Shown: positions 2,005 through 39,627, counted from the stretch's first letter. The stretch: 64,000 nt of DNA from Escherichia coli (GCF_050320075.1 NZ_CP190018.1), one strand, 5' to 3'. Numbers and translations are program-made. The notes: a model not told the origin generated them from the letters alone.

Positions 2005-3982
<1,978 letters not shown>

Positions 3983-11889: not shown

Positions 11890-11926
11890 GTGAATTCGGA
11901 TGGCGATACTCTGCCATCCGTAATTT

Positions 11927-16135: not shown

Positions 16136-16146
16136 TGCTTTAGTAA

Positions 16147-16168
16147 GGGCGCGACGTTTGCGCCCTTT
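16147..16168 (+). terminator. Intrinsic terminator downstream of bglX
   Basis: GGGCGCGACGTTTGCGCCC hairpin followed by TTT. Confidence 0.55.
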
Positions 16169-16203
16169 GTAGGCCGGATAAGGCGCTCGCGCCGCATCCG
16201 GCA
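16169..16203. repeat. REP element
   Basis: GTAGGCCGGATAAGGCGCTCGCGCCGCATCCGGCA matches REP consensus. Confidence 0.7.
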
Positions 16204-16345
16204 GGAAACGCCGGACCGAATATGCCTCTTAAGTATTTATCTGATTCTGCAACTGAATCCTTCCGCTCAAGCTAACCCCGCCATTATCAACTATGCTTTT
16301 CTCTTAATTCGCTGAAAACAACAGTAAAAGAATGAGGAAAGCATC

Positions 16346-17263: not shown

Positions 17264-17269
17264 TTTCCC

Positions 17270-19346: not shown

Positions 19347-19350
19347 ACGT

Positions 19351-20082: not shown

Positions 20083-20170
20083 AGGTATAACCTGCGAGCA
20101 TGACGCCACCAATTCCGCCTAACGCCATAAACAGGAACAGGGCGATGACCCCAATTTTAGCTATGCGCAT
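20063..20170 (-). CDS. yohO: 35-aa small membrane protein YohO (not in ORF track)
   Basis: Hand translation: [35 protein letters not shown]; ATG 20168-20170; 3' end overlaps yehW 3' end by 20 bp on opposite strand. Confidence 0.7.
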
Positions 20171-20229
20171 AATGCACTCCTTATGTTAACGAAAGGATTG
20201 TACAGTAAAGCGCATTTGTTAACGAATCA

Positions 20230-20961: not shown

Positions 20962-21182
20962 CGTCTCACCCTTGCTCGCGAGGTCCCGGTTTAACTTTAG
21001 ACGCAGTTTTGCGAACCAGGTAGTTTTGCCCGTTTTTTGTGCATCTATAGGGTGATTTTATTTTTGCCAGGCGATTTTGAGTGATCGTACTCACGAATTC
21101 TCATTTTTCTGCAAGAGTTCAAAGAAAGTTAAACGCAGGCAATGTATGTTACGCGTTTTAAAGGGAAGTGTGGTTTGCGGGT

Positions 21183-22868
21183 ATGTACGATTTTAATCTG
21201 GTGTTGCTGCTGCTTCAGCAGATGTGCGTTTTTTTAGTCATTGCGTGGTTAATGAGTAAAACGCCATTATTCATACCGTTAATGCAGGTCACGGTTCGTC
21301 TGCCGCATAAATTTCTCTGCTACATCGTCTTTTCCATCTTCTGCATCATGGGCACCTGGTTTGGGTTGCACATTGACGATTCTATTGCCAATACCCGTGC
21401 GATAGGCGCGGTAATGGGCGGCTTACTCGGCGGTCCGGTCGTCGGTGGGCTGGTTGGTCTGACCGGCGGGTTACATCGATATTCGATGGGGGGCATGACC
21501 GCGCTAAGTTGCATGATCTCGACCATCGTTGAAGGGTTGCTCGGCGGCCTGGTACACAGCATCCTGATCCGTCGCGGGCGCACTGATAAAGTCTTTAACC
21601 CCATTACCGCCGGTGCCGTCACGTTCGTCGCTGAAATGGTGCAAATGTTGATCATCCTGGCAATCGCCCGACCTTATGAAGATGCGGTGCGTCTGGTGAG
21701 TAATATTGCTGCGCCAATGATGGTCACCAATACCGTCGGCGCGGCGCTGTTTATGCGTATATTGCTCGATAAACGCGCGATGTTTGAAAAATACACTTCG
21801 GCTTTTTCTGCCACTGCGCTAAAAGTGGCTGCCTCGACGGAAGGCATTTTGCGCCAGGGGTTTAACGAAGTGAACAGCATGAAAGTGGCACAGGTGCTGT
21901 ATCAGGAGCTGGATATTGGTGCAGTCGCGATTACCGATCGAGAGAAATTGCTGGCCTTTACCGGAATTGGTGACGATCACCATTTACCCGGCAAACCGAT
22001 TTCTTCGACTTACACCTTAAAAGCGATTGAAACCGGTGAAGTGGTCTACGCTGATGGCAACGAAGTACCTTATCGTTGCTCTTTGCATCCGCAATGCAAA
22101 CTGGGGTCGACGCTGGTAATTCCGTTGCGTGGTGAAAATCAGCGGGTGATGGGTACCATCAAATTGTATGAAGCCAAAAACCGTTTATTCAGTTCAATCA
22201 ATCGCACGCTGGGTGAGGGGATTGCGCAACTGCTTTCGGCGCAGATCCTCGCCGGGCAATATGAGCGGCAAAAAGCGATGCTCACCCAGTCAGAGATCAA
22301 ACTGCTTCACGCCCAGGTGAACCCCCATTTTTTGTTTAATGCGCTTAACACCATTAAAGCGGTGATCCGCCGCGACAGCGAACAGGCCAGCCAGCTGGTG
22401 CAGTATCTTTCCACTTTTTTCCGCAAAAACTTAAAGCGGCCTTCGGAGTTTGTTACTCTCGCCGACGAAATTGAACATGTGAACGCTTATCTGCAAATTG
22501 AAAAGGCGCGCTTCCAGTCGCGGTTGCAGGTCAACATTGCTATTCCGCAAGAATTATCCCAGCAGCAATTGCCCGCGTTTACCCTGCAACCGATAGTGGA
22601 AAACGCTATTAAACATGGGACATCACAACTGCTGGATACAGGGCGAGTGGCAATCAGCGCCCGACGTGAGGGGCAACATTTGATGCTGGAGATCGAAGAC
22701 AACGCCGGTTTGTATCAACCGGTAACCAATGCCAGTGGGCTGGGGATGAATCTGGTGGATAAGCGTTTACGTGAACGGTTTGGCGATGACTATGGGATAA
22801 GCGTCGCCTGTGAGCCTGATAGTTACACCCGAATAACGTTACGACTACCATGGAGGGACGAGGCATGA
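21183..22868 (+). CDS. btsS: LytS-family sensor histidine kinase BtsS (YehU)
   Basis: ATG 21183; N-terminal multi-TM 5TMR-LYT domain, GAF-like region, His-kinase box [16 protein letters not shown]; overlaps btsR by 4 bp. Confidence 0.9.
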
Positions 22869-23584
22869 TTAAAGTCTTAATTGTCGATGATGAGCCGTTA
22901 GCACGGGAGAACCTGCGCGTATTTTTGCAGGAGCAGAGCGATATTGAAATCGTTGGAGAGTGTTCAAACGCCGTGGAAGGGATCGGCGCGGTGCATAAAC
23001 TGCGCCCGGATGTGCTGTTTCTTGATATCCAGATGCCGCGCATCAGTGGTCTGGAAATGGTGGGGATGCTCGACCCGGAACATCGTCCGTATATCGTTTT
23101 TCTCACCGCGTTTGATGAATACGCCATTAAAGCCTTTGAAGAACATGCTTTTGATTATCTGCTGAAGCCAATTGATGAAGCGCGACTGGAGAAAACGCTG
23201 GCGCGATTGCGTCTGGAGCGCAGCAAGCAGGATGTTTCGCTGTTACCGGAAAATCAACAGGCGCTGAAATTTATCCCTTGTACGGGGCATAGTCGGATTT
23301 ATTTGCTGCAAATGAAAGATGTAGCATTTGTCAGCAGTCGGATGAGCGGTGTCTACGTTACCAGTCACGAAGGGAAAGAGGGCTTTACCGAATTGACATT
23401 ACGTACCCTGGAGAGTCGTACACCACTACTACGCTGCCATCGTCAGTATCTGGTTAACCTCGCGCATTTACAGGAGATTCGTCTGGAAGATAACGGCCAG
23501 GCCGAGTTGATTTTGCGTAATGGCTTAACCGTGCCGGTCAGCCGTCGTTATCTGAAAAGCTTAAAAGAGGCGATTGGCCTGTAA
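22865..23584 (+). CDS. btsR: LytTR-family response regulator BtsR (YehT)
   Basis: ATG 22865; receiver domain [17 protein letters not shown]...LDIQMP; C-terminal LytTR DNA-binding domain. Confidence 0.9.
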
Positions 23585-23630
23585 AAGACTGCTAAAATGG
23601 CTTTTTGCCTCATCAACACCTGAAGGCCTC

Positions 23631-24101
23631 ATGCTAAGTAACGATATTCTGCGCAGCGTGCGCTACATTTTGAAAGCCAATAATAATGACCTGGTGCGTA
23701 TTCTGGCGCTGGGTAATGTCGAAGCCACCACGGAACAGATCGCCGTCTGGCTACGTAAAGAAGACGAAGAGGGTTTTCAGCGTTGTCCGGACATTGTTTT
23801 GTCTTCCTTCCTCAATGGCCTGATTTATGAAAAACGCGGCAAGGATGAGTCTGCTCCGGCACTGGAGCCGGAACGTCGCATTAATAACAACATCGTGCTG
23901 AAAAAATTACGCATCGCGTTTTCGCTGAAGACCGATGACATTCTGGCGATCCTCACCGAACAGCAGTTCCGCGTTTCGATGCCGGAAATTACGGCGATGA
24001 TGCGTGCACCGGATCATAAAAACTTCCGCGAATGCGGCGATCAATTTTTACGTTATTTTCTGCGTGGACTGGCAGCGCGCCAGCATGTGAAGAAAAGCTA
24101 A
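23631..24101 (+). CDS. yehS: DUF1456-family protein YehS
   Basis: ATG 23631 gives 156-aa MLSNDILRSVRYILKANNNDLVRILALGNVEATTEQIAVWLRKEDEEGF... Confidence 0.85.
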   Translation: MLSNDILRSVRYILKANNNDLVRILALGNVEATTEQIAVWLRKEDEEGFQRCPDIVLSSFLNGLIYEKRGKDESAPALEPERRINNNIVLKKLRIAFSLKTDDILAILTEQQFRVSMPEITAMMRAPDHKNFRECGDQFLRYFLRGLAARQHVKKS

Positions 24102-24142
24102 GACGGGTATGGCGGCCATGCAAAAACATGGCCGCCGACAGA

Positions 24143-24604
24143 TTATTTCACTTCTTTAAAACCAGCGGCTTTCATCACCAGTTCCATTTGCGCCATAGTG
24201 ATACCTTTTTTGGCATCTTCAGCAGAAACGTTGATTCCTGAAATACCCTGCAGGGCTTTGAAATCCACTTTTTCCATATCGATAGTCACGTTTTCCTGCG
24301 CGTAGGTATCGGTATAGGTTAATTTTTCTTCAACACCCGCGATGTTTTTGTATTTGGCGCTTAACGGCTCAAGTGTCTTGGCAGCATCTTCTTTGGTGGT
24401 TGCACCAATGGAGGCAAATTGAATTTTGGTTTCAGAAGATTGCTTAAGCACCTTGTCACCTTTGTAGACATAGGTAATGGCAATTTCAGTACCGTTCAGA
24501 TTGGCGCTGAATTTTTTCGATTCTTCTTTGTCACCGCAGCCAGCAAGAGAGAAAACCAGAACAGATGCAACAACGAGGGAAAACAGCTTATTGAAAGCCT
24601 TCAT
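24143..24604 (-). CDS. yehR: DUF1307 lipoprotein YehR
   Basis: ATG 24602-24604; lipobox MKAFNKLFSLVVASVLVFSLAGC. Confidence 0.85.
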   Translation of the reverse strand: MKAFNKLFSLVVASVLVFSLAGCGDKEESKKFSANLNGTEIAITYVYKGDKVLKQSSETKIQFASIGATTKEDAAKTLEPLSAKYKNIAGVEEKLTYTDTYAQENVTIDMEKVDFKALQGISGINVSAEDAKKGITMAQMELVMKAAGFKEVK

Positions 24605-24728
24605 GTAAAACTCCATTTTATTTAATCAAGAAACTGGTGACTCTCACCAGGAGCTATATAGGATATGCCTAATACCGTGACGTGAGCAGTCCGGAACTGG
24701 AGTAGAACTCTTAGTAAAAAGCACTATT

Positions 24729-26729
24729 TCATCCTTGTTGCTGAAGCATGGGGAATAATTGTTCGCAAAGTAAAACACCGTTATTCATTGCTTCTACCCG
24801 TGCCTCGCTTTCTGTATTACGAAATTGTGCCAACACATGTGCCAGCCGATAAAAAACCACCGCGGTGAGGTCATTCGCCAGCAACTCTGCCTGACCAATA
24901 GCACTCTGTTCCTGATAGCGCCAGCCGTTATGGAGCAGTTGAATAAGTAACGCCTGGCAGCGCATCAGCAACTGATGAGCGGTAGACGGCACAGGCAAAA
25001 CGCTGGCAGAAGGTAGCGGTGCCACAGGCGCAGTTTCTGCGTCCAGCGCCCAGGCGCGGGTTTTGGTCATCATTACCCGTGGTTCCAGTGTCAATTGCCC
25101 CTCTACAAAGCTGACAAAGCCAGAAACCAGACTCACGGGGTCGTCTGTTTGTTGCAAAAGCGCCGCCATGCGTTCAACGGCAAAAGGAGAACAGGCAGAT
25201 GCCGGAAGGGATAACGTCAGCAGATTATCTTCACCTTCGCCGCTGATTACCTGCGCGTCCAGCGTCTGGCGGCTGCTATCCCAACCGAGTGAAATACACT
25301 CAGCGACTGGCAGAATAAATAAGTTATCCACCTGATTAAGAGGCCGTATGCAGGCGGGGGGACGCTGGCGTAAATATTCACGCAAAGCCACAATGCCCGG
25401 CTGGCGCAACGGCGCACTCAACATTTGCCAGGCGTCTGGCGACAGTGGAACAACACTACTCAAGCGGTTGCGGGTAGCTAACAGCAGCTCGCCATCGGCA
25501 CTGCGTTTTGCTGCTTGTGAAACAATTTGCCCACCAGCCAGTGCGCCAGCCTGAAAACTAAACAGCCGACGCGTCGCTGCCGGTGAGTTTTCCTGTTCGC
25601 TTCTCGGCCAACTACGCGAAAGATGCAAAATACTGCCGGTGTCGGGATCGGTAAACCAGATGCGTAAACCATACTGCTCAATATCCTGCCAGCAACGCAT
25701 ACCTAAAGACACCAGCCGCAGATGATCAAGCTTTGCTTCTCCGGCAATGCCAGCGCCAACGACCGTGCGCCACGGCATGGGAGGAACTTCACCAACACTG
25801 TCGCGCCGGGCCATCTCTTGTGCACAATTTAATCGATTGTTTAATGCCGCAAGCTGACGTAAGCATTCTCCGGCATGATAGTGGCTGGCGCGGGCGTGGA
25901 AGGCATCAACGCTGGCGCGCAGTTGCCGTAGCGATTCACTCACCCAGCGCCAGTTGCAGCGTTCCGCCGCTTGCTGCGCGCGGCTGAAAGCAGCCTCGTA
26001 ATGAATAAGCGGCTGGCTGATGCCGCCAAGCCATAACGCCTGGCTTAATTGCTGAACATATTGACGACACGCGTCCCCCTCATCGTTGGCAAACGGATCG
26101 TCAGATGATGTGACGTGTTCGCTGCGCATCTGCCAGATTAAATGAGTAAATTCCGCTTGCTGCGCTTTGGCCTGGACAAAGGCCTGTACTGCCAGTACGA
26201 CATGTTCGCAAAGTGTTCCTTCAATACAATCACAGCGAGCGAAACGAATGCTGCTGCGGGAATAAAAACGTACATCGCTCATCGGTAAGCGGGCAGAGGG
26301 AATTTCGCTCGGCGTACAGAACAACTCAATGGTGATGCCTTTAGCGACCAGTGCCTGTGCGCGTTTGCGGGTGGCATCGGGCAGGGTAGCCAGTTCTTCC
26401 AGCCAGATTGCCGGATCCCACTCTTCTTCTTTTTCCGTAGTCTGGGTGGTGGCGCAAAGTCGCTGATAACTTAAAACCAGCATCACGCGATGGCGGCACA
26501 TGCCGCTGGCCCCGCAGCTGCACTGAGCCTCTTTCAGTGCCTGACCGTTCGCCAGCTGGGTACGGACACCGTCACTGAAGGTGGCGATTAAAGCGCCGTT
26601 CTCATGGCTGATCTCCGGGACGTTGCCATTTTCCAGTTCCTTAAGACTGCGCTTAACAAAACCGGCATTGCTTAACGCTGTCAGGGCCTGCGGTGTCAGT
26701 TCTAATAATTCCGGACGTAGTGAATTCAT
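24729..26729 (-). CDS. yehQ: SWIM zinc-finger domain protein YehQ (two CxCx5CxH motifs)
   Basis: ATG 26727-26729 (MNSLRPELLELTPQ...); motifs CSCGASGMCRH and CDCIEGTLCEH seen in translation; start overlaps yehP stop (ATGA). Confidence 0.85.
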   Translation of the reverse strand: MNSLRPELLELTPQALTALSNAGFVKRSLKELENGNVPEISHENGALIATFSDGVRTQLANGQALKEAQCSCGASGMCRHRVMLVLSYQRLCATTQTTEKEEEWDPAIWLEELATLPDATRKRAQALVAKGITIELFCTPSEIPSARLPMSDVRFYSRSSIRFARCDCIEGTLCEHVVLAVQAFVQAKAQQAEFTHLIWQMRSEHVTSSDDPFANDEGDACRQYVQQLSQALWLGGISQPLIHYEAAFSRAQQAAERCNWRWVSESLRQLRASVDAFHARASHYHAGECLRQLAALNNRLNCAQEMARRDSVGEVPPMPWRTVVGAGIAGEAKLDHLRLVSLGMRCWQDIEQYGLRIWFTDPDTGSILHLSRSWPRSEQENSPAATRRLFSFQAGALAGGQIVSQAAKRSADGELLLATRNRLSSVVPLSPDAWQMLSAPLRQPGIVALREYLRQRPPACIRPLNQVDNLFILPVAECISLGWDSSRQTLDAQVISGEGEDNLLTLSLPASACSPFAVERMAALLQQTDDPVSLVSGFVSFVEGQLTLEPRVMMTKTRAWALDAETAPVAPLPSASVLPVPSTAHQLLMRCQALLIQLLHNGWRYQEQSAIGQAELLANDLTAVVFYRLAHVLAQFRNTESEARVEAMNNGVLLCEQLFPMLQQQG

Positions 26730-27862
26730 GACTGAAGATTCTCCGCAAGCCATGATGCCAGCTCGCCCGGTGTCATGGCGGCTATTTGTGCGCCGACATT
26801 AACCAGCGCCTGGGCCGTATCGTGGTCATAGCAAGGTGTTGCGGTGCTATCGAGCGCCGCCAGTCCCAGCACTTTGATGCCGCTCTGGACACACTTTTTC
26901 ACCTGATGCGTCAGTAATGATGATGAACCCCCTTCGTAAAAATCGCTCACGAGGATAATGACGCTTTTCGCTGGTTGTTCAATAAGTTGCCGACCATATT
27001 CCATGGCACTGGCGATATTGGTTCCGCCGCCTAATTGCACTTTCATTAATAACTCTACCGGATCGGCAACGTCTGCCGTGAGATCAACCACGCTGGTGTC
27101 AAACGCCACCAGATGGGTACGAATACCGGGTAACTGCCATAAACAGGCCGCCATCACCGCTGAGTGGATCACCGAGTCAACCATCGATCCGCTTTGATCA
27201 ACCAGTAAGACCAGTTGCCATTGATCGCTATGGCGCTTAATGCGGCTGTTAAAGCGGGGGGATTCGATATACAACTTGCCGTGTTGCGGATGCCAGTGTT
27301 GCAGGTTGGCACGCAGCGTACTTTTGAAATCGAAATTACGCGCCAGTGGAATAAATGAGCGACGGCGGCGATCGCGGACACCAGAAAAAGCCTGGCGAAC
27401 TTCCTTTGCCAGTCGCGCCATAATCTCTTCAACAACCTGGCGCACTATCCGGCGAGCGGCAGCCAGCACTTCGGGATTCATCAGATGTTTGGTGTGCAAA
27501 ACGGCGCGTAGCAGGCTTTCAGAAGGCTGCATACGTTCCAGTACGTCGAGATTCGTCACCACATCTTCAATGCCATAGCGCAGCACGGCATCGCTTTCCA
27601 GCCGCTCGATCACCTGTTGCGGAAACAGCGTGTGAATACTGTTGATCCACTCAGGGGTGGTGAGATTTGAGCAACCTAATCCACCGGAGCGTTCACCACG
27701 CTGGAGCCGTTCAGGATCGCGCCCATACAGCCACTCCAGCGCGTGGTCTATCTGCCGGGCATTGTCATCCAGCCCACAAAGGGTCGTTTCTGCCGCTTCG
27801 CCAAGAATTAATCGCCAGCGTTGTAGCTCACGGGTGGTCAGAAGATCGTTCAGTTCAGACAT
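26726..27862 (-). CDS. yehP: von Willebrand factor A (VWA) domain protein YehP
   Basis: ATG 27860-27862 (MSELNDLLTTRELQRW...); MIDAS motif DQSGS in LLVDQSGSMVDS; overlaps yehM stop by 8 bp. Confidence 0.85.
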   Translation of the reverse strand: MSELNDLLTTRELQRWRLILGEAAETTLCGLDDNARQIDHALEWLYGRDPERLQRGERSGGLGCSNLTTPEWINSIHTLFPQQVIERLESDAVLRYGIEDVVTNLDVLERMQPSESLLRAVLHTKHLMNPEVLAAARRIVRQVVEEIMARLAKEVRQAFSGVRDRRRRSFIPLARNFDFKSTLRANLQHWHPQHGKLYIESPRFNSRIKRHSDQWQLVLLVDQSGSMVDSVIHSAVMAACLWQLPGIRTHLVAFDTSVVDLTADVADPVELLMKVQLGGGTNIASAMEYGRQLIEQPAKSVIILVSDFYEGGSSSLLTHQVKKCVQSGIKVLGLAALDSTATPCYDHDTAQALVNVGAQIAAMTPGELASWLAENLQS

Positions 27863-30134
27863 GGAAAACTCCCCAGTGTTGCAGCGATGCCAGTGCCTGC
27901 TGTTCGAGTTGTTGATGATGTGCAATGGCTTGCGGTGGACAATGCAACGGCATTTGCAGTGCCGAAACGGGAAGTTGCGCCAGTTGATAATGCTCAAACA
28001 CCTGATGCGCCAGCGTCCCGCGTTCTCGTGGTGGTAGCCAGGCCATCGCCGCGCGTAAATCGGGCAGGGCGTTAATAAAATCGTCGTTACTCAGTTGATT
28101 TAAATGACTACTGAAACCGGCGATAAATGCCGGCTGACAGGCCAGTTGATGGCGGGCCAGCGCCAGCAAACCGTGCAGCGCTTCGCCGGATTGTGCCGGG
28201 GATAATTGCGCCAGCATTGTCAGCGCCGCTTCGGCACTGGCGTTGGGATGTTCCAGACGCATTAGTGCGCCAAGAGCCGCGCCGCGATCCAGCGCCGGGG
28301 CATGAATCGCCTGACTGCGGCGCTCCAGTAAGGCTACCGCCGCAGAAAGCGAAACGCCGGGTAAATTAACGCCGCTATGTAGATCGCGCAGGATATGGCA
28401 AAGCGCCTGCCAGCTATGCAGGTGAGCGTGAAACTCCTTTTCCTCCGGTTTGCCGTTGGATTCACACAGCCAGAGTGTGCGATCGATAGCCGCGCATAAC
28501 GTCGTCTGCAATATCTGCGCGCCTTGCATACCGCTGATTTCATCTAACCGCCATAAGGCATATAGCACTTCCAGCGCCTGGCCCATTTCGGCAAATTGAT
28601 TTTCCTGGGCGATTAATAATGTAAGTTGCTCCAGTAATTGTTGACTGAAAGACGCCAGACCCGCTAACGCCGCCTGGCTAAGACATGTGGTGATGATGCT
28701 GATTCCACCCGCGTCCAGCATATCGGCTTCTAATTTATGGCGTGCGGCTTCCTGGAGTGTGGCACCAAAGCAGGCGGCCTCAATCAATGCCGCATGCTGG
28801 CTAAGCGGGCGGGTTAATTTCCAGCATTCTTCACCGTTGCCTGCAAGTGACAGTGTACTTCCCTGCTGGCGCACAACCCCTGGGATCTCCAGTATTGCCA
28901 ACCGATGTAACACCTGACTTTGCGCCAGTCCATCGGGGGTAAAGCGATTTAAGGTAAGCTCCGCCGGAAGAGAGATTCCGGTACGTTCCAGTTCGCAGGT
29001 GACATCTTTTGGCAGAGGCGGTTGTGGCGTAGAAGGGGCAAGTTTACCGAATCCGTCACCCGCTAATGTGTCTATCAACGTTAGCAGAATCGGATCGGTA
29101 TCGGGATGAATAACGCCGCGATAGCTCCACGGCAACGGCGCGTTCAAGGCTTCTTTAATCAGCGAGCCTGCTATGGCATCCAGCCAGTCAGTGCGTAACG
29201 GTAGTGTATGACCGCGCAACTGTGCCAGCGCCATCGCATGCAGATGAGCGGCAGCCATATCAGCGGTAGAAGCGGGCAATTTGTGCTGGCGCAAACGGGT
29301 AAGGATAGTTTTTAGCAGTTGTTCACCGGCCTGCTGTAGGCCCCACTGCCAGCACCAGTTTTGCCAGACCGGGGCAGGCATACCAGAAAGGTATCCTGCC
29401 AGCACATCAAGGCGCTTTTCACTGTAGGGGGTGAGATAACAACCTGTAACGGCATCTGCCAGCTAGGGCAATTCCGGCGTGTTAATTTCCTGCGTGTATT
29501 CGCGCCACATCTTTGCCAGTGCCGGAGCATGCCAGCCGCCGCAGACGACTAACACGTCGCCATTGTTTTGCTGCATCGCCCATCCAATCCAGCGGGCCAT
29601 AAAGGCTTCGCGCTGACGATTGAGGGCATCTCCGGGGGAATCGCCCCGCAGTTGTGCAAAATAGTGCGCCAGCGCAGAGGGTAATGCAGTTTGCTGGCTT
29701 TCATCTTCGAACAAGTGATCCCACAGGGTGTCGCTGTTATCCATGCGGGTGGCACGCAGCAGTAAGGTCTGGCTGTCATCTTGCGTATCGGGTGATTCGT
29801 CTTCTTCTTCACTCTGCGCCCAGCAAGGCAAATCGATGAAGTAAGTTTGTGCCTGAATACGACGTGCGGCTTGTAGCGCCTGCCACTCCGGCGAAAATTC
29901 AGCAAATGGCGTCCAGGCACCACGCCCGGGGGCTGCACCGTCCTGATACTGGCAATAACTGTAAATAGCTACCGGAAGCTGGTGGGCTAAAAACAGTTCG
30001 TCTACCCGGTCATTAAAATCAGCCGGGCCTTCAATCAACACGTATCGTGGCCGCTGGCTTTCGATTAACGATTTCACCAGCCGGGCGCAGGCCGGACTAT
30101 GATGCCGGATGCCGACAATTAACGGCTCGCTCAT
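27855..30134 (-). pseudogene. yehM: yehM (759-codon frame) interrupted by a single in-frame TAG at 29463-29465
   Basis: ORFs 29463..30302 and 27855..29405 are in the same frame; codon-by-codon read gives ...INTPELP-stop-LADAVTGCYLTPYSEKRLDVLAGYLSGMPAP...; start MSEPLIVGIRHHSP at 30132-30134 with GAGGA RBS 10 bp after yehL stop. Confidence 0.75.
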
Positions 30135-30144
30135 GCATCTTTCC

Positions 30145-31222
30145 TCACGGCAGGCGGTGGCGGGCTTGATAATAAGCCTGCCAGTGAGCTTCTTTATGTG
30201 TGGCGACACGCTGTTCGAAGTAACGGCGCAGACGCGCGCGATCTTCTTCGTTATCTTTAACGATGGTTCCGGCAATACAGTCCACCAGATCGGCTGGCTC
30301 ACCTGCGCGATTCGCTAAAAACCAGGCGCGGACGCCCACTGCGTGGGCCACGTTCACGGCTTCAGCGGTGGATATAATTGCCGTCAGAGTATCCATTGAC
30401 GTTTTCTTTTCGCCGTTGGCACGCAGATCGCGGAAGGTGCGGACCAGTAACTCCAGTACCGCGTCAGGCACTTTATGCGGAATACCGCTATGGGCCAGCA
30501 AACGCGCCGAAGCACTGGCGACCAGTTCCAGCTCCTGGGCGAAATCCATAATCGGAAAGACGGTTTCAAAATCGAAGCGACGCTTTAGCGCGGCACTCAT
30601 CTCATTGACGCCGCGATCGCGGGTATTGGCAGTGGCAATAATATTAAAGCCTTCCCGCGCATAGAGCTGACTGGCTTCACCGGTGAGTTCCGGCACCGTC
30701 ATCACCCTGTCAGAAAGCATACCTAACAGACAGTCTTGTACTTCCAGCGGTGTACGCGTTATCTCTTCAAAACGGACGATTTTGCCGTCGCGCATTCCCT
30801 GGTAAAGCGGGGCAGGGACCAGTGCTTCCGTAGACGGACCATGGTTGATAAGCAGGGCGTAGTTCCATTTGATCTTCAGTAGTAGATGCGCCGCCCTGGA
30901 TGGTTAACCCGGCATCGCCGCTAATAGCGGTTGCCAGTAATTCAGACAGGAGAGATTTTGCGGTGCCCGGTTCCCCCACCAACATCAAACCGCGCCCGGT
31001 GGCAAGAGTGACTAACATACGTTCGACAGCGGAGGGACTAATCACCACTTTACGGCTAATATTTTGCGCGCTATCGCCAAGGATAAAAGCACGGGCCGCA
31101 GGCAAACTTAACTGCCAACCGGGCGGGCAAGGTGCGTTATCATTTTGTTTTAATTTTGCCAGTTCATCGGCGTATAACACAGCAGCAGGCGGACGCTGCA
31201 GATGATTATTCTGCGGTGACAT
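30145..31222 (-). pseudogene. yehL: yehL, MoxR-type AAA+ ATPase, split by a frameshift into two overlapping frames
   Basis: N-terminal frame ([12 protein letters not shown]...Walker [11 protein letters not shown]...GGASTTEDQ) ends at 30767; C-terminal part (…[41 protein letters not shown]…ATANTRD…) is in another frame bounded upstream by a stop at 30904-30906; total span 1078 nt is not a multiple of 3. Confidence 0.75.
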
Positions 31223-31338
31223 ATATTCATCCCTGAAATGTATTAATGAAATAAACGATATTTTACGCGCAATAAATGTTTGGCGCATTAGTTGTTTGAG
31301 CGAAAAATATCTGGAAAGCAGATCACAGTAAATAAAAA

Positions 31339-31365
31339 AACCTGCTGGTGAGGCAGGTTCTTTTA
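31339..31365 (-). terminator. Hairpin flanked by A7 (left) and T4 (right); reads as strong intrinsic terminator for minus-strand transcripts
   Basis: AAAAAAACCTGCTGGTGAGGCAGGTTCTTTT; rc gives stem followed by U7. Confidence 0.5.
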
Positions 31366-31445
31366 TTTACTATTTTCAGGCCCAACACCGCAGCCTGTGC
31401 AACATCGTGTTCCAACGAACGAATTATAACCATCGGTGGACCCCG

Positions 31446-31473
31446 TTGCAATTAAGATAATGAGATTTATAAT
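31446..31473 (+). promoter_or_regulatory. Candidate sigma70 promoter TTGCAA-N16-TATAAT upstream of small ORF
   Basis: -35 TTGCAA at 31446-31451, -10 TATAAT at 31468-31473, 16-bp spacer. Confidence 0.4.
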
Positions 31474-31654
31474 CCAGACGGTTGGGACGTTGCGCCGGAT
31501 CGGACCAATTTTAAGTCCTGGCTACCGGACGGGTGGTGCTGCAGGTGGTGCCCTGATCCGGAGTGCAACATCGTGGTCCAACATACGTAAACCAGTATCG
31601 ACAGGCAGTGTAAGGGTAAGGTGCTGGTGTTGCGCTCCTTAATAAGGAGAGCGG

Positions 31655-31744
31655 ATGGACACGCTGACACAAAAGTTAACCGTGCTCATTGCCGTACTGG
31701 AGCTATTAGTGGCTCTGTTACGGTTGATTGATTTGTTGAAGTAA
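31655..31744 (+). CDS. Candidate 29-aa small hydrophobic/amphipathic protein (unnamed; not in ORF track)
   Basis: AAGGAGA Shine-Dalgarno 7 nt upstream of ATG 31655; translation MDTLTQKLTVLIAVLELLVALLRLIDLLK; followed by hairpin terminator. Confidence 0.35.
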   Translation: MDTLTQKLTVLIAVLELLVALLRLIDLLK

Positions 31745-31765
31745 TGGGCAAATTGAAACGCATCT

Positions 31766-31790
31766 AAGGGGGAATACCGTTTCCCCCTTT
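31766..31790 (+). terminator. Hairpin AAGGGGGAATACCGTTTCCCCCTTT after the small ORF and immediately beyond yehK stop
   Basis: 7-bp G/C stem, then TTT AATAAA. Confidence 0.4.
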
Positions 31791-31797
31791 AATAAAG

Positions 31798-32118
31798 CTA
31801 TTTTTCTATTTCTTGGTTGAATATATTCTGTAGTTCGGGATTAAAAATGGCTATTACCGTTTCTGGTGATTCGCCCCGTAATTTTCGCTCATCAATAAAC
31901 TCATCTCTTATATAAATCAACGCATCATTTATTAGCGGGTCGACATCCTCTCGATCACGTTGATGAAATGTTGGATGTAGCCGGAATCGCTCCAGTCGGT
32001 AGACGGAACCTGTAAATAATTCAGAGCATTTATGGATCTCAAGTCTGAAGGAAAACGGATCTTCAGGTACAGGGACCTCATAATCGTAAATAGCAACCAG
32101 CTCTTTTTGCACGATCAT
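31798..32118 (-). CDS. yehK: Uncharacterised small protein YehK
   Basis: 106-aa ORF MIVQKELVAIYDYEVPVPEDPFSFRLEIHKCSELFTGSVYRLERF...; ATG verified. Confidence 0.85.
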   Translation of the reverse strand: MIVQKELVAIYDYEVPVPEDPFSFRLEIHKCSELFTGSVYRLERFRLHPTFHQRDREDVDPLINDALIYIRDEFIDERKLRGESPETVIAIFNPELQNIFNQEIEK

Positions 32119-32178
32119 CGCTTTTCCCGGTGGCAGGTCGTGTTAATAACGGGCAGTCGCATCACTGCCCGCTGTGTT

Positions 32179-35100
32179 TTAATGGAAAATGACGTCGGGT
32201 GCGCTTAACGCTTCACTCAAATCAAACACATCAAGTTCGGCAAAAGTGACAGATTTATTGTCACGGTATACATGAAGAGAACGGAAGCTCATTAGCGCTT
32301 TGCTATCAACATTGTAGTGGTTAAAACCGGATGAAAACTTAAGGACCAGCCGGTACTCGCCCAGGTCATAGACAAATGCATTCTCATAGCCTGACTCCCA
32401 GCCTTTGTATCGCATTCCCATAAGTTGCCCAACGGTAGCAGATTTACCTTCCCAGCGATTCAAACTATTACTGGCTGACTCGTCAGGCGTGAGCAGTACT
32501 GTGCGCCGTGCCAATTGGCGAAAAGGCGGCATAATTTCGTAATCGGCAAAAAGCTGTGCAAACTCACTGCGCATTTCTGCTGCCATTTCTAACGGGTGGG
32601 CAATGCCAATCAGAGCATCGGCAGGCAGGTCAATTGGCTCATCTTGCTCATTGCAGAACTCCCCCTCAGCGGCCACACGAAAGGCGTTGAGTAAACGACG
32701 CGGTTCATTTGCCGGATAAACACCCCATATTAATCGCTGAGTAACCAGACGGGTAAAGGGATGATTAACAAACAGAGAATGAAAATCTGCCAGCGACCAG
32801 CGTCGGGTGGTGCGCAGGGCAGTTTCAAGACGCGGGAGCAGGTTTTTGCTCACCTGAGTGGCATCTTTTTTTAGCCCTTTTAGTCGGGCCAGTGCCTCGG
32901 GTGCTTTCAGTTGATCGTCATCGGCGCGCAACCGGGGAACGCTTTTCTGGCGAACGTTTTGCTGATCAAAGATAACCGGGTTAAGGTTTTCATCGAAGCG
33001 AACGGTAAATTGCCGTGGACCAAAATCAAAAATCAACGCCTGCGGATCATCAAGACCCAGTGTTGGGACTAATCTGTCCGCTAACTGTTCCTGGCTTAGC
33101 CCTCGATTTTCTGCGACCACCTGAAGAAATTCCGCCGCGTTATCACGTAAGGGGCGGGATTTCGCCCGTTGCGATATATGATGCAGCTGTATCAGTGCCA
33201 TATCATTATTCATCTGAGTAAGTATGTTCAGGCCGCTGACGGCACGGGCAGATTTGCCTTCCTGTGGCCAGGCAAGGATCTGTGTCGTCAGATCCCGTGC
33301 CGTGCTTTCGTCGCCAAAGAGACTTAACGCCAGAAATGCCCAGTTGTCTTTTGCGGGAGCACCAGCTTGTTGCCACGCGGTGAAAAGATCCCAGGCAAAA
33401 GCTGCCAGCGTTTGCGGCTGGCAGAAAGTTTTCAGTTGTTCCAGTCCGCTATAAAAACGTCCGCCCTGGGTAAAGCGCAGCATTTCGCCGATAATTTCCA
33501 GTGCGTCATCGGTAACAGGCTGATTATTCGTGATAAGGCGCGGCCTGGACCACATTGCCGGCTGCCAGAAATCAGGGGCTTTTGGAATGCGTGTCGGGTA
33601 AATCTCTATTGGACTCTGTTTAAGTAAATGCTCCAGGGCAGGCCATACATCTGTACGCTGCCAGCGGTTTGCCGCGGTTTGCAGCAATTCACCATGTCCC
33701 TGTTCGTAAAGTAAACGTAGGGCAAGTAATGCAGCTTCGCTATTATCGCTGGATTTGGTGAAGACAAGAGGGATAAGTGCAGTAGCCGTATGTTCCGGCC
33801 ATTGTAAAATCCACTGGCGAGCCAGATCACGCTGCGCCGCGAAACGTCGCCAGACGCGGGCAACGGGCAGGGCCAGTTCTGTTGCGCCAAAATTTAAAAT
33901 TAACGGAAATGTTTCTTTTGGACGATATGAAAAAGCCAACAGCAGACCTGGTAGAGCATCCAATCCGAAGATACTGAGAAAATAGTCCTCACCCGCGAAC
34001 AGATGCTTTTTCTCATTGATACGTAGCCAGAAAGTCAAAGCTATCTCACGCGGCAACTGTGCCAATAAATACAGGTTCCAGATACTCTTTTCCCGACGAT
34101 AGCGTGAGTAGCTGTCATTTTCCCATATGTTAATTAACACTTCTACGTGACCGCTGCGAAGCGCCTGTTCTGCTAATTGTGCTTCCGGGGAGTTCCAGCC
34201 ATTCAGGATCTCTTCAACCCGCCCCTGGTAGTAATGCCACTGAACAATGAGTGAATTGCGTGCAGCATCCAGTTTTCCGGGGAGTATATAATTCAGAAAC
34301 AGCCATACATCATCTCCAAAACCCAGCTCCTGTAGTACAACTCGTCCACTTTTATGTTCCATGCGTTCCGCAAGAGATTCCGTGCTGAAATAACGGGCAG
34401 ACTCAGTGGCGGCAAGCCTCTCTCGTTCGCCTGGTTGCCAGTAAACTTGCGGCGTTAATTCGAACGGTGCCAAATCAAGACGTGGAACTGTCATTTTTTT
34501 CTTACTACGCCACGGTGGTGAAACGAGGATTTCAGGCATTTGGCTGTTATCGGTGCTATCAATAACCGTTTTAGGCGGTGCCGATAAATAACTATTCAGC
34601 ACTGACCGGGCTTGAGTACTTAACCACGGCATCACCTCTTCTGCCAGTTGTGGCTGCGATGCCATCAGCGTTTGTAACAGCGTACGCCAGTATTCATCAC
34701 GTGCTTTTTGCTGTGCAGGCAGCTTTTTGTCTTCGATGATTGGATAACCAGGGCGCGTAGGTGGTTCTTTTAGCGCCAGCAGTTCTGCCAGTGCGGCAAG
34801 CGTCGCATGGGGGAAATTTTTACTGTATTTAGCTACACGTTGCAGGCTGGGTTTGTTTTTATCAGCAACTAACAGCAGGGTGCGGATGACCTGCGGATGG
34901 TTAATTTGTACCAGCAGACTGCCGCAATCTTCTTTATGGGCATACATTGCCAGGCGTGGAACGGCTGCCAGTCCTTGTTCGCGCAAAAGGGCAGCGCAGG
35001 CCGCGTAGCCGAAGTGGTTTTCATGCGACATGTAGCTGGCTTCCCGATCGCTAAATATATCCTGGCTCCAGTAGCGTTCGAGTTTTCTCACCGCTCTGGG

Positions 35101-35811
35101 GTCAATAGCAACAACTTTTAACCACTCCTTAGAATGAAAATGAGTCCACGGGCATTCAAGGCTTACCAACTCATTGGCGATTTCTGGTTTTTCCGGGAGG
35201 ATCAGAGCAATAAAAGGGCGGCGAACTTTGGTTATTCCTGGCAGTGCGGCAATGAGTTTGTCGGCGCAACGCTGCCAGCTGCTTTCCTCTGCCAGAGAGA
35301 GATGCTTACGCAGTCGGAGATCGAATTCGTTATAGGTTTCTGATCGATAACCATAGCCATAATCCTCGTTCTGATACTGCAATGTCACTAGCAGAGGATC
35401 ACTTTCATAACATCGTGTAATAAACTGGCGTGCAATCACCACCTCAGTCGCATATTCCAGTCCCTCTTGTTGGACGATTTCGTCGAGCAACTGTTGGCTA
35501 TCATTTTGCGCGATACAGGCTAGCGCCGCCATTGTCCGGGCCGGAACTGAGGGTTTGTGTTCGCCAATCAAGTTGATGGCCTGCGTAATGGCCGACTGCC
35601 ACTCCAGTGAAAAATTTTCATAACGCCAGACAATGTTTTTTTTCTTCTCAGCTTTTTGTAGCAATTCATCACCCAGTGTCTGGATGAGGCTTTCAGTGAT
35701 AACAGGCACCGGTTCGCCCGGCCAACTGCGATGGCTGAGCGGCGTTTTGCCTTTTTTATATTTCAGTTCCACTTGGGCGTTATCCGCCAGCCACGGTAAT
35801 TCCTTGTCCAT
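32179..35811 (-). CDS. yehI: Giant MolR-family protein YehI (1210 aa, DUF4132-like, no N-terminal WGR domain)
   Basis: MDKELPWLADNAQVELKYKKGK...; shares blocks with the two upstream paralogues (RKHLSLAEES.WQ.C..KLIAA.P, LDFGPRQFTV, RLIWGVY, LFADYE..PPFRQL); ATG 9 bp downstream of preceding gene stop. Confidence 0.9.
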   Translation of the reverse strand: MDKELPWLADNAQVELKYKKGKTPLSHRSWPGEPVPVITESLIQTLGDELLQKAEKKKNIVWRYENFSLEWQSAITQAINLIGEHKPSVPARTMAALACIAQNDSQQLLDEIVQQEGLEYATEVVIARQFITRCYESDPLLVTLQYQNEDYGYGYRSETYNEFDLRLRKHLSLAEESSWQRCADKLIAALPGITKVRRPFIALILPEKPEIANELVSLECPWTHFHSKEWLKVVAIDPRAVRKLERYWSQDIFSDREASYMSHENHFGYAACAALLREQGLAAVPRLAMYAHKEDCGSLLVQINHPQVIRTLLLVADKNKPSLQRVAKYSKNFPHATLAALAELLALKEPPTRPGYPIIEDKKLPAQQKARDEYWRTLLQTLMASQPQLAEEVMPWLSTQARSVLNSYLSAPPKTVIDSTDNSQMPEILVSPPWRSKKKMTVPRLDLAPFELTPQVYWQPGERERLAATESARYFSTESLAERMEHKSGRVVLQELGFGDDVWLFLNYILPGKLDAARNSLIVQWHYYQGRVEEILNGWNSPEAQLAEQALRSGHVEVLINIWENDSYSRYRREKSIWNLYLLAQLPREIALTFWLRINEKKHLFAGEDYFLSIFGLDALPGLLLAFSYRPKETFPLILNFGATELALPVARVWRRFAAQRDLARQWILQWPEHTATALIPLVFTKSSDNSEAALLALRLLYEQGHGELLQTAANRWQRTDVWPALEHLLKQSPIEIYPTRIPKAPDFWQPAMWSRPRLITNNQPVTDDALEIIGEMLRFTQGGRFYSGLEQLKTFCQPQTLAAFAWDLFTAWQQAGAPAKDNWAFLALSLFGDESTARDLTTQILAWPQEGKSARAVSGLNILTQMNNDMALIQLHHISQRAKSRPLRDNAAEFLQVVAENRGLSQEQLADRLVPTLGLDDPQALIFDFGPRQFTVRFDENLNPVIFDQQNVRQKSVPRLRADDDQLKAPEALARLKGLKKDATQVSKNLLPRLETALRTTRRWSLADFHSLFVNHPFTRLVTQRLIWGVYPANEPRRLLNAFRVAAEGEFCNEQDEPIDLPADALIGIAHPLEMAAEMRSEFAQLFADYEIMPPFRQLARRTVLLTPDESASNSLNRWEGKSATVGQLMGMRYKGWESGYENAFVYDLGEYRLVLKFSSGFNHYNVDSKALMSFRSLHVYRDNKSVTFAELDVFDLSEALSAPDVIFH

Positions 35812-35820
35812 GCTCTTTCC

Positions 35821-38800
35821 TTATTCAAACAGGGCTTCAATATCGTTAATGAGTTCGCTGGCGGTGATGTCGTCGAGCACGGAGAACTGCGCTTCCTGAG
35901 TTGAATTACTCCCCCAGCCATAGCTTTCCGCTTTGCCTTCCCATAGCCACAGCTTGCTTAAGACCTGCTCAGCGCTAAGATCGGCTGGTGACATACCCAC
36001 CGCAAAACCTTCGTCGATTTCCATGATTAACGACCAGCGACCGAGAGGTTTGATCATCCATCCGATCCAGCCTCCATCCTGTGGTTCGCCCTTTATCCAG
36101 CCTTTATTTGCCAGCCCCATGACCCGGCCGCTCGGGCATTTTCTGCCTGCCCAGCGGGTCAGTTCGCTGGCGTTGCGCTCGGCTTCTGTCAGGGCGTAAC
36201 TGTTACGTTCAAGCTGACGGAACGGTGGTAGCAGTTCGTAGTCGGCAAAAAGCTGACCAAAGGCGACAGCATCCGTCGGTGATATTTCCAGAACGTGAGG
36301 AATGCCAACAGAGATATCGCCTTCCTGCAAGGTGAAAAGATCATCGTCAGCGGTGCTGTAGCTGTTATCTTCCGCCACCCTAAAGCACGCCTGTAGCTGG
36401 TTTTCGGCGCTATAAACGCCCCAAATCAGACGGCGGGTTAAGTGACGAACCAGCGGATGCTCAACCAGGAAGAGCTGAAAGTTTTCCGGCGACCAGCGGC
36501 GGCGCAGGCACATGGCGGATTCCAGCCTTGCTACCTGCTGGGCGGCGACGGTACGCGCATCTTTTTTCAGCAATTTGTAGCGGTTAACAGCATCGTTTGC
36601 CTGTGATTCATCATCGCTTTTATTGGGTTTAGGTAAGTCTTTCAGGCGGCTGCCGGAAACATCGCGCACAAACGGTTTTAAGGTTTCATCAAAGCTGACG
36701 GTGAACTGCCGTGGGCCAAAATCCAGCAGCAGCGAACCGTTATCATCCAGACCGAGAGCCGGTGCTAACCGATCTTCAAGCTCCGCTACCGTCAGTTCGC
36801 GACTTTCGGCAATGTCGGCAATTTTCTCTTTCGCCCGCTCCTGTAATGCTTTGAATTTCAGTTTCTGGGCAATGCCGTTAAGCTGCATCAGGGCGATATC
36901 ACTACTGATAGCGGCGAGGATATCCAGCCCGACGGTGGCGCGTTTATGCTGGGATTCACCAGGCCAGGCGCGTATTAATGGCGTCAGTTTGCGGGCGGTG
37001 TCATCGTTACCGAGAACGCCTAACGCAGTGAACGCCCAACTCTCTTTCGACGGCGCGCCAGCGGTCTGCCAGGCGGTAAACAGATCCCAGGCAAATTCAG
37101 CCAGTGAGTCGGCGGTACAGGCATCTTTCACCTGCAATAATCCCGGATACAGCGCCTCCTCCTGATGGAAGCGGAGCATTTCACCGAGGTGCTGGAGTGC
37201 GCTATCGGGCAGTGATTGGGCATTTGCTTTTAATACCGGGCGGGTCCAGATCGATGGCTGATAAAAGGCCGGAAGAGTGGGGATTTTTGTCGGGTGATTA
37301 TCTAAGGGATCGAGCGCAAGCATAGCGTTCACCGCATCTGTTACTTCCGGCTGGTTATAACGCCGGGCGATTTCTTGCAGTAATGGTTGATGACCGTTTT
37401 CGGTAAGCATACGCAATGCAGCGCGGGCGTTATCCTGTGCTTCACCGGCTTTGCCGAGCGCCGCAGACAGCAGGCCGGTAATGGCGTGTTCCGGGTATTT
37501 CAGCAGCCAGGTGCGGGCGTCTTGTCGTAGGGTTTTGAGTTTGTTGAAGGCGCGGGCGACGGCAGGTGCCAGCTCACTCGCTGCGAAGTAATTCGTTATG
37601 GGCAAGGCTTCCTGTGGATAGCGTGCAAGTGAGTTTACTAACCCAGGTAATCCTTTGAGTCCAAAATGTAACATGGCGTATTCGGTATCGGTATGCGGAG
37701 ATAGAGTAAGGGCATTCCATGCTCTTACTGCTTTCTCCAGCGGCAATGTTGTCAAAATCCCCAAATGCCAATAATGCCCGGTAGGTGAATGAAACACCTT
37801 AAATTCACTTATTAAAGTTGAATAATCTTCATTTAGCCATGCCTCAACTACCGCTTCGGGAGCTTTAATATATGTACCAGCGATCCGTCGTTGAAAACCC
37901 ATCCTTGCCAACAGATTGGCAGTACTTTCTTCATGACTAACCGTGATGTGTTTTGAATACCAGATATATTTCGCCAAAAGTTGATTACTGATTTCTTCTG
38001 TCAGATAACTGATTGGCTCAATACCTAATGGTGCTAAATCAAGCACTGGAATCGGCGATTTTTTCTTTTTCGAAAGCCATGGTGGGGAGACTACTATGGC
38101 CGGCAGTAGATCGGCGCTGGCATGGTTTGAGGGCTGTGTCAGTTGTTGCTGGCATGATTTCAGCACTGCAACTGCGGGTGTCGAAAGCCAGGGAATGACC
38201 TGTTCTGCTAGTGTCGGTTGCGAGATAAGCATCGTCATTAGCATAATGCGCCAACTATTCTCTTCTTTTTGCACTAGAAGTTCCGCCAGTGCTGCCAGTG
38301 CTGCGTGTGGGAACGCAGCGCAGGCTTTCGTCATTCGATCGTGACAGCGTTTAGTATGCCCTGCTACACGTATAAGCAGTGTTAATGCGAACGGATGATT
38401 GATATGACGCAACACATCGGCGCAGTAGTCACTTGCGACATAGGGAGCAAATCGGGGCAGGGCCGCAACACCTTGCTCCTGTAATACGGTGGCTGACCAT
38501 ATCGCACCACAATAGTAATCATCAAAAATGGCATATGGCTCGTGATATTTTTCTAATGAGGCAAGAATGTGCTCATCAGTCGCCACTATTTTTAGCCACT
38601 CCAGCGAGGGTAATTTCTTTTGCCCCAGTAGACGCTGGGCAATTTCATGTGCAATTTCTGGTTTTTCGGGCAATAACAAAGCAATTAATGGTTGCCGCCA
38701 TTCTGGAATATGTGGAACTGCGGCAATAAGTTTTTGTGCACATTTTTGCCAGAGAGACTCTTCCGCCAGTGATAAATGTTTACGTAGGCGTAATTCAAAG

Positions 38801-39615
38801 CTGGAATATTGCTGCAAATAATCAGGTGAAATGCCAGACGACAGGAAAACAATATTATTGTTGACATAATCCCATTCAATAGATATTTGTTGAAGATGTA
38901 TTATTACATCAGTAGCATATTCCAGACCGCCTTCCTGAATAATCTGATCCATAACATCCGCACGCTCTTTATATCTCGTGCAGTGCAGTTCAAGTGCCGC
39001 GAGTACAGCCATTACCGGTGATGGTAATTTTGTCGTTTTCGGGCTGTTAATCAGATCGATCGCCTGAGCGATGAAGTTTTGCCACTCTAAAGTACAGGCG
39101 CTGAAGTCAAATGTAGCTGTTTTGTTATCCCGTTGCGACACGCCACAGGCTAAGCGACGTAACTGGGTTAATTTATCTACAGGTGTAACAGGATCTCCGG
39201 GAAAGCGGCGATGGCTTAAGGTGGTGGGTACGACTTCAAGCGGAAAAACGACAGCAATATCTTTTGCCAGCCACGGTAAAATAACGTCTGTATTTTTGTC
39301 AGCCACGTAGAATTCTGGTGTAACTGAGGGCTGTTCCTGAATGATGGTAGAAAAGTCAGATAATTCGAGAGATTTCGTTACCGTTCGAGTATGTTTCGAT
39401 GTAGCATTCTCCGCATGTTCCACATACCCCTTTTTCGTTTTCTCCGCAATCAGCTTGAGTTCCGCTTTTTCCGCCGCCGCAGCATCTGCAAAGCTTTTTA
39501 CCTGACTTTGCCCGTTGGTGCCGACTTTGCCCCAACTGATATTCAGTTCGTTTCCCTGCTGCTCCACCGCCCAGAATTTATGTGATTTTTCGTCCTGATA
39601 AATATAGGTTTTCAT
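35821..39615 (-). CDS. Giant WGR-domain MolR/YehH-family protein, paralogue A (1264 aa)
   Basis: N-terminal WGR domain MKTYIYQDEKSHKFWAVEQQGNELNISWGKVGTNGQSQVKSFADAAAAEKAELKLIAEKTKKGY; remainder homologous to YehI and paralogue B; 12-bp gap with AAGGA RBS after paralogue B stop. Confidence 0.85.
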   Translation of the reverse strand: MKTYIYQDEKSHKFWAVEQQGNELNISWGKVGTNGQSQVKSFADAAAAEKAELKLIAEKTKKGYVEHAENATSKHTRTVTKSLELSDFSTIIQEQPSVTPEFYVADKNTDVILPWLAKDIAVVFPLEVVPTTLSHRRFPGDPVTPVDKLTQLRRLACGVSQRDNKTATFDFSACTLEWQNFIAQAIDLINSPKTTKLPSPVMAVLAALELHCTRYKERADVMDQIIQEGGLEYATDVIIHLQQISIEWDYVNNNIVFLSSGISPDYLQQYSSFELRLRKHLSLAEESLWQKCAQKLIAAVPHIPEWRQPLIALLLPEKPEIAHEIAQRLLGQKKLPSLEWLKIVATDEHILASLEKYHEPYAIFDDYYCGAIWSATVLQEQGVAALPRFAPYVASDYCADVLRHINHPFALTLLIRVAGHTKRCHDRMTKACAAFPHAALAALAELLVQKEENSWRIMLMTMLISQPTLAEQVIPWLSTPAVAVLKSCQQQLTQPSNHASADLLPAIVVSPPWLSKKKKSPIPVLDLAPLGIEPISYLTEEISNQLLAKYIWYSKHITVSHEESTANLLARMGFQRRIAGTYIKAPEAVVEAWLNEDYSTLISEFKVFHSPTGHYWHLGILTTLPLEKAVRAWNALTLSPHTDTEYAMLHFGLKGLPGLVNSLARYPQEALPITNYFAASELAPAVARAFNKLKTLRQDARTWLLKYPEHAITGLLSAALGKAGEAQDNARAALRMLTENGHQPLLQEIARRYNQPEVTDAVNAMLALDPLDNHPTKIPTLPAFYQPSIWTRPVLKANAQSLPDSALQHLGEMLRFHQEEALYPGLLQVKDACTADSLAEFAWDLFTAWQTAGAPSKESWAFTALGVLGNDDTARKLTPLIRAWPGESQHKRATVGLDILAAISSDIALMQLNGIAQKLKFKALQERAKEKIADIAESRELTVAELEDRLAPALGLDDNGSLLLDFGPRQFTVSFDETLKPFVRDVSGSRLKDLPKPNKSDDESQANDAVNRYKLLKKDARTVAAQQVARLESAMCLRRRWSPENFQLFLVEHPLVRHLTRRLIWGVYSAENQLQACFRVAEDNSYSTADDDLFTLQEGDISVGIPHVLEISPTDAVAFGQLFADYELLPPFRQLERNSYALTEAERNASELTRWAGRKCPSGRVMGLANKGWIKGEPQDGGWIGWMIKPLGRWSLIMEIDEGFAVGMSPADLSAEQVLSKLWLWEGKAESYGWGSNSTQEAQFSVLDDITASELINDIEALFE

Positions 39616-39627
39616 TGCAAAGTCCTT

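Follow-up and report, generated by a model that had tools for sequence, protein, structure and literature searches.

The MoxR ATPases usually work as chaperone-like factors for maturation, together with a vWA partner, and YehL is the type (founding) member of one of seven MoxR subfamilies (PMC3893208). In hns/stpA mutants of Escherichia coli K-12, expression of yehL and yehM is raised (PMC3686432). Hence, both genes are silenced by H-NS in this strain. Our search of the literature on yehL, yehM, yehP, yehQ, DUF5682 and DUF4132 found no functional study. For the yeh region, published work covers only H-NS silencing in K-12, the listing of the MoxR subfamily and regional deletions or insertions.

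To place the protein in its family, we used the intact allele of strain MS 115-1 in profile searches. Intact YehL matched Pfam AAA_5 (PF07728) at residues 79-220, with an E-value of 2.6e-34. It also gave weak bpMoxR and AAA_3 matches, and matched midasin AAA modules and PDB entry 2r44. A vWA gene, yehP, lies two genes downstream of yehL in the same operon. By analogy, the pairing of MoxR and vWA proteins in maturation is the best available guide to YehL and YehP. The PADLOC models of defence systems, at E<=0.01, gave no match for intact YehL, YehM, YehP, YehQ, YehI or the YehK-like protein. NCBIfam returned only matches far below threshold (GvpN and MadB for YehL, cobaltochelatase for YehP).

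We analysed 64,000 nucleotides of an E. coli chromosome (GCF_050320075.1, NZ_CP190018.1), referred to here as the window. It includes a standard E. coli metG-yeh chromosome segment, on the minus strand. The intact yehL of K-12, and of most E. coli, has the same neighbours as the window copy (yehK upstream; yehM, yehP and yehQ downstream) and the same start and stop. The features of the region are as follows.

43425..39628 and 39615..35821, minus strand: two further DUF4132 genes
35811..32179, minus strand: yehI
32118..31798, minus strand: yehK
30145..31222, minus strand: yehL pseudogene (MoxR-type AAA+ ATPase, YehL subfamily), 1078 nt compared with 1089 nt when intact
30767..31222, minus strand: N-terminal frame of yehL, by translation; Walker A lies within 118 native residues, which are followed by 33 out-of-frame residues and by TGA at 30769..30767
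30145..30903, minus strand: C-terminal frame of yehL, +1 relative to the start frame; W123 to P362, including Walker B IVRFEE
30770..30903, minus strand: stretch in which both yehL frames are open, from the stop positions
30867..30868, minus strand: junction of an 11-bp deletion; TCAAGTACGGC is missing (nt 356-366, codons I119-G122 of the intact gene)
27855..30134, minus strand: yehM pseudogene (DUF5682), with an amber TAG at 29465..29463; labelled 'internal stop' by PGAP
26726..27862, minus strand: yehP (vWA-domain protein), intact, with an 8-nt overlap between its start and the end of yehM
24729..26729, minus strand: yehQ (SWIM zinc-finger protein), intact, encoding 666 aa, with a 4-nt overlap between its start and the end of yehP

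The intact yehL allele has 1089 nt and encodes 362 aa. The length of the window copy (31222..30145) is 1 modulo 3. From the normal ATG, the start frame reads MSPQNNHLQ...GEPGTAKS...GGASTTEDQ, then 33 shifted residues (MELRPAYQ...NRPF), then stop. The +1 frame is open back to a TAA at 30906..30904 and extends as far as the usual stop, at 30145. The start frame encodes Walker A (GEPGTAKS, residues 83-90), and the +1 frame encodes Walker B (IVRFEE, residues 152-157). Hence, the two motifs are not part of one continuous polypeptide. When joined, the frames rebuild the intact 362-aa protein minus four residues, so the two-frame pattern is no product of chance. The original prediction was of a frameshift splitting a MoxR-like ATPase gene, with a total length that is no multiple of three, and with Walker A and the C-terminal parts in different frames overlapping at 30770-30903. 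All of this holds. The gene has an 11-bp gap compared with intact alleles, the intact protein contains AAA_5, and the overlap is exact by the TGA and TAA stops. On its sequence, the window copy belongs to the MoxR/YehL family as a pseudogene, rather than as a functional member.

The lesion was defined by aligning the window with the intact alleles of MS 115-1 and K-12 BW25113. In this three-way DNA alignment, GATCAAA-TCAAGTACGGC-TGGAAC of the intact allele corresponds to GATCAAATGGAAC in the window. The deletion is a single gap, after nt 355, and places the junction at 30868|30867. A flanking T creates a one-base ambiguity, so that 30867|30866 is also allowed. This T is the sole microhomology, of 1 nt. 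Apart from the deletion, the alignment to intact alleles was ungapped and contained no second indel. Residues I119, K120, Y121 and G122 are lost from YehL, and the frame is broken past residue 118. In a phmmer comparison, G122 aligned with a conserved glycine, in the ...LIG.. motif, of midasin AAA modules. Nucleotide alignment with intact yehL, the check originally proposed for locating the indel, thus put the junction within the predicted range of 30866-30885, at either permitted position. The accompanying guess, contraction of a CAAAT tandem repeat, fared less well. The intact allele does have ATCAA-ATCAA, yet the 11-bp deletion begins in the second copy and continues for 7 nt after that copy ends; microhomology is limited to 1 nt. 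Therefore, no repeat unit has been contracted.

The adjacent gene carries a lesion of its own. At codon 224 of 759 in yehM, the TCG (Ser224) of intact alleles is replaced by TAG in the window (29465..29463), the amber codon that had been predicted. Also as predicted, yehP and yehQ are intact; both are uninterrupted, at 27862..26726 and 26729..24729 respectively. Along its whole length, YehQ shares 96% identity with an intact orthologue. An exact 60-mer around the yehM amber codon occurs in 214 genomes, and the yehL deletion junction in 215. The two sets are essentially the same. Hence, the yehL and yehM lesions belong to one haplotype. Strain THO-008 differed by one base around the amber codon, but was set aside because its yehL and yehM are intact and on a different allele.

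To determine how often yehL is broken, we compared a 1.2-kb query over the gene with 5426 complete E. coli genomes. The query matched 5223, and at least 80% of it was covered in 5208 records. The intact 1089-nt allele is present in more than 5000 of the complete genomes. Intact alleles were 95.6-97.7% identical to the window over the 1.2-kb query, and the Walker A and C-terminal motifs of the window copy are still recognisable. Identity was at least 99% in 220 records. Among the matches listed, which are a spread sample, there was no identity between 100% and 97.7%. Among the matches listed outside the group at 99% or above, all but one span 1212 bp, compared with 1201 bp in the window. A 60-nt query centred on the junction gave 629 full-length matches. 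After subtraction of 414 gapped matches (84.5%, to the intact allele), 215 remained. Hence, 215 of 5426 complete genomes match the deletion junction over the entire query and with no gap. The carriers were isolated from humans, dogs, cattle, poultry, gulls, molluscs, sewage and surface water, in many countries.

The same sequence has already been flagged in RefSeq. PGAP labels it 'yehL, AAA family ATPase, frameshifted' in strains M217 (B7R44_RS09030), 266917_2 (C4R22_RS05460) and YZLc1-3 (N4725_RS09340), where it has pseudogene locus tags. In these records the sequence and the lesion are identical to those of the window, and the identical yehM alongside is flagged 'internal stop'. The annotation gives neither the nature of the lesion nor its shared-haplotype history; the exact lesion is now defined. 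We tried 'AAA family ATPase', as opposed to 'ATP-binding protein', as a proxy for broken yehL and rejected it, since the gene is intact, at 1089 nt, in STE15, 98201 and ET76. Broken yehL has a disabling lesion, compared with the intact majority allele, and this lesion is repeated in independent assemblies, as for a pseudogene fixed in a lineage. The window copy has no compensating feature, either a restart site with a usable ribosome-binding site or restoration at a second site. We conclude that broken yehL is an already annotated, ordinary and recently formed pseudogene. Overall, we put the probability that the window copy is an inactivated gene, neither recoded nor split, at roughly 93%.

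Several observations bear on the age of the lesions. Outside the gap, the window yehL and its nearest intact allele differ at 16 codons synonymously and at one non-synonymously. For yehM there were 60 synonymous and 29 non-synonymous differences, compared with 48 and 22 between two intact alleles. Hence, codon differences outside the lesions look like those expected under purifying selection, as judged from these counts. There is no further decay, and the carriers compared are nearly identical. Consequently, inactivation was recent.

We used mismatch maps to define the haplotype that carries the broken genes. The following feature was identified.

18245..43368, no strand assigned: 25.1-kb block with broken yehL and yehM, from mismatch maps

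This block has one SNP throughout in comparison with the ST167 strain M217. It also has one SNP in comparison with the ST38 strain 266917_2, over the aligned part (20894 upward). The flanking DNA is different. From 2007 to 18244, the window has 0-1 mismatch per kb relative to K-12, over the aligned part (10098..18244), and is 2-4% divergent from M217. From 43369 to about 52000, it differs from M217, 266917_2 and K-12 and is of a third kind. This mosaic has one breakpoint within yehY and the other where the first DUF4132 gene has its 5' end. Identity of 100% with the mosaic over 25 kb was limited to two complete genomes, YZLc1-3 and Ec-U3. Between the window and YZLc1-3 there are two mismatches in 57.6 kb, plus a different IS1 position. 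In the window, IS1 is at 1237..2006, between preT and yeiS, and this site is empty in YZLc1-3. The latter strain has a different IS1B (93% identical, in the opposite orientation) adjoining dusC.

Among the sequence types carrying the block, ST38 is a phylogroup D clone. Carriers of broken yehL include members of ST167 (Sanji, WCHEC005237, AR_0149/0150/0151/0162, SCEC020007, 51008369SK1, AR435 and M217; PMC6392093) and of ST38 (266917_2 and 28Eco12; PMC6963479). ST167 is close to the K-12 clade (PMC6392093). The yehL gene of K-12 is only 95.6% identical to that of the window. In queries with the 25-kb sequence, ST38 and ST167 gave identical scores. A further 49.9 kb adjoining the yeh region, compared between M217 (1675000-1724936) and 28Eco12 (1802400-1852300), had one mismatch and one gap. 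Hence, the block shared by ST38 and ST167 is at least about 91 kb. The sole gap is in cirA, encoding the catecholate siderophore receptor. This gene is frameshifted in M217 (28950..30927 of the compared 1675000-1724936 segment) and intact in 28Eco12. In the ST38 strain 266917_2, a lambdoid prophage interrupts mlrA just beyond the shared yeh block (30340..41201 of the extracted segment). In the window (20230..20961), and in M217, mlrA is intact.

We found no intact progenitor of the broken haplotype among complete genomes. The nearest intact yehL among the matches listed has 97.7% identity counting the gap, which equates to 17 substitutions. Read most simply, these comparisons indicate a single origin of the broken yehL-yehM pair, which then probably entered other backgrounds by homologous recombination. 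This follows from the near-identical block in ST38 and ST167, and from the 25.1-kb piece beside K-12-like DNA. The broken genes would have spread by recombination and later as multidrug-resistant clones expanded; they would not have arisen repeatedly. Their movement by recombination between ST38, ST167 and the window lineage is the one mildly new element. The yehL deletion and the linked yehM amber codon provide a simple marker of one haplotype. The near base-for-base identity of this haplotype in ST38, ST167 and a third lineage documents recent large-scale recombination between clinically important clones.

A benefit of inactivation, rather than hitch-hiking, could have spread the haplotype, such that loss of YehL and YehM is adaptive. 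We regard this as unlikely. Two independent knock-outs do occur within one operon, and the haplotype occurs in three or more chromosomal backgrounds, among them the high-risk clones ST38 and ST167. Moreover, other lineages show different damage at the yeh locus. In K-12 there are an internal stop in yehQ and a DUF4132 (molR) pseudogene in the same metG-DUF4132-yehLMPQ region. Lineages 2/3 of S. sonnei have lost yehM-yehL-zorO by deletion, TnMB1860 is inserted in the yeh region of ST131 L1a, and a DUF4132 gene is frameshifted in THO-008. These lesions involve different genes and different mutations, whereas those in the window affect the ATPase itself and its DUF5682 neighbour. However, long blocks were transferred (25 kb here, and at least 91 kb for ST38/ST167). 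Hence, any gene within them, or none, could be the driver. Furthermore, 96% of complete genomes keep yehL and, among those examined, only the carriers (about 215) depart from the intact length. The operon is also H-NS-silenced in K-12, so its loss may simply be neutral. The pattern of damage across lineages fits a dispensable, mostly silent module. If loss were adaptive, this advantage would explain why recombination has moved one broken haplotype into several successful, mostly multidrug-resistant, backgrounds (ST38, ST167 and YZLc1-3-like). Repeated independent damage to the yeh locus would then indicate a costly system. The K-12 yehQ internal stop is annotated in BW25113 (10583..12583) and in DH1 (24583..26583), as positions in the extracted segments. 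Hence, the laboratory reference strain is not a fully intact model for YehLMPQ.

Programmed +1 frameshifting of the prfB type occurs at CUU UGA C, with an upstream Shine-Dalgarno-like stimulator. The window yehL resembles prfB in two respects: the downstream part of the gene is in the +1 frame, and the upstream frame ends with a U-rich codon and UGA. The candidate site is CCG UUU UGA A (30775..30767), where programmed or adventitious +1 frameshifting could restore full-length YehL. In principle, though rarely, a ribosome pausing at the stop could allow peptidyl-tRNA-Phe to pair anew with the overlapping UUU. A slip at UUU UGA would land exactly on the native ...R-F-E-E... codons (CGT-TTT-GAA). 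However, all the intact alleles compared read CGT TTT GAA in frame, as ordinary codons. Hence, the site has probably not been selected for shifting. There is no Shine-Dalgarno-like element upstream of the UUU UGA (30772..30767). Any shifted product would be without I119-G122. A shift at the UUU UGA, the sole candidate site and at the end of the overlap, would in addition scramble 33 residues of the AAA+ core, from Walker A to Walker B. Hence, the conserved protein sequence would not be kept. In addition, downstream yehM is knocked out too. The original prediction had singled out orthologues with the same two-frame layout as evidence for recoding. Such a layout is present in 215 genomes, but all represent one haplotype, with 0-1 SNP over 25 kb where compared. 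Hence, they are copies of one mutation, and not a case of independent conservation. The layout is not conserved across divergent orthologues; the other alleles examined are single-frame, as are more than 5000 genomes. Thus, window yehL differs from prfB in its missing stimulatory element, its confinement to one haplotype and the scrambled ATPase core that a shifted product would have. We consider recoding highly improbable.

Equally hard to credit is a split gene, in which the two halves of YehL are made separately and reassemble into an active ATPase. Both halves are still open frames, and the first ATG of the second frame, at 30795 (M147), precedes Walker B. However, the sole purine-rich stretch before this ATG, AGGGA, ends 1 nt away. 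This is too close for a ribosome-binding site, and we found no usable Shine-Dalgarno spacing before M147. The break is located between Walker A and Walker B, within a single alpha/beta domain (the one AAA_5 match, 79-220), and residues 119-146 are missing from both pieces. No divergent orthologue shows such a split. An error of sequencing or assembly, with 11 bases lost from a gene intact in the cell, is less probable still: nothing specific favours it beyond the fact that frameshifts in single assemblies are often homopolymer errors, whereas here 11 bp of non-repetitive sequence are lost with no homopolymer slip, the identical junction recurs in 215 complete genomes from many laboratories, hosts and countries, and a second and independent yehM lesion always accompanies it. 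An assembly artefact is excluded.

The consequences of the lesions can be outlined. An 11-bp deletion with 1 nt of microhomology removed nt 356-366 of the 1089-nt gene. The product expected from the normal start has 151 aa, comprising 118 native residues including Walker A, and 33 out-of-frame residues before the TGA. Walker B, the AAA+ motifs that follow it and the C-terminal helical region are left in the +1 frame, with no ribosome-binding site of their own. The 151-aa product is predicted to lack ATP hydrolysis and hexamer formation. The yehM amber at codon 224 of 759 is an independent lesion in the same haplotype. The MoxR-DUF5682-vWA-SWIM module would therefore be non-functional.

Effects on the remaining genes are also predicted. 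In the intact operon, yehL and yehM are separated by a 10-nt gap, and the overlaps of yehM/yehP and yehP/yehQ are 8 nt and 4 nt, respectively. Since genes of the operon overlap, their translation is probably coupled normally. The premature stops should uncouple translation, expose long untranslated RNA and, by polarity, lower expression of the intact yehP and yehQ. For genome annotation little changes, since yehL is already flagged as frameshifted in RefSeq. For genetics, natural yehL/yehM double knock-outs in widespread clones are ready material for probing the function of YehLMPQ.

Other elements of the window were identified alongside the operon. Between yehK and yehL is a zorO-orzO type I toxin-antitoxin pair, at 31334..31409 (minus strand) and 31655..31744 (plus strand). 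The OrzO-P antitoxin RNA scored 101.3 bits with Rfam RF02083. The ZorO open reading frame encodes 29 aa (MDTLTQKLTVLIAVLELLVALLRLIDLLK), and its Shine-Dalgarno sequence, AAGGAG, is strong. Promoter-like sites in divergent orientation are at 31451..31423 (minus strand) and 31446..31473 (plus strand), and orzO is transcribed toward yehL. The yehK-yehL spacer is 575 nt in the window compared with 306 nt in K-12. Further upstream, 32179..43425 contains three large, intact, tandem DUF4132 paralogues of about 1210-1265 aa each, the middle one with a WGR domain. In K-12, which has one DUF4132 copy fewer, the first is a pseudogene marked as having both a frameshift and an internal stop. Finally, RNA elements were found at 62514..62637, 62647..63105, 54471..54567 and 10872..10952. 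STnc490 adjoins the tnpA of IS200/IS605, a TPP riboswitch precedes thiM and a Peptidase-S11 leader precedes pbpG.
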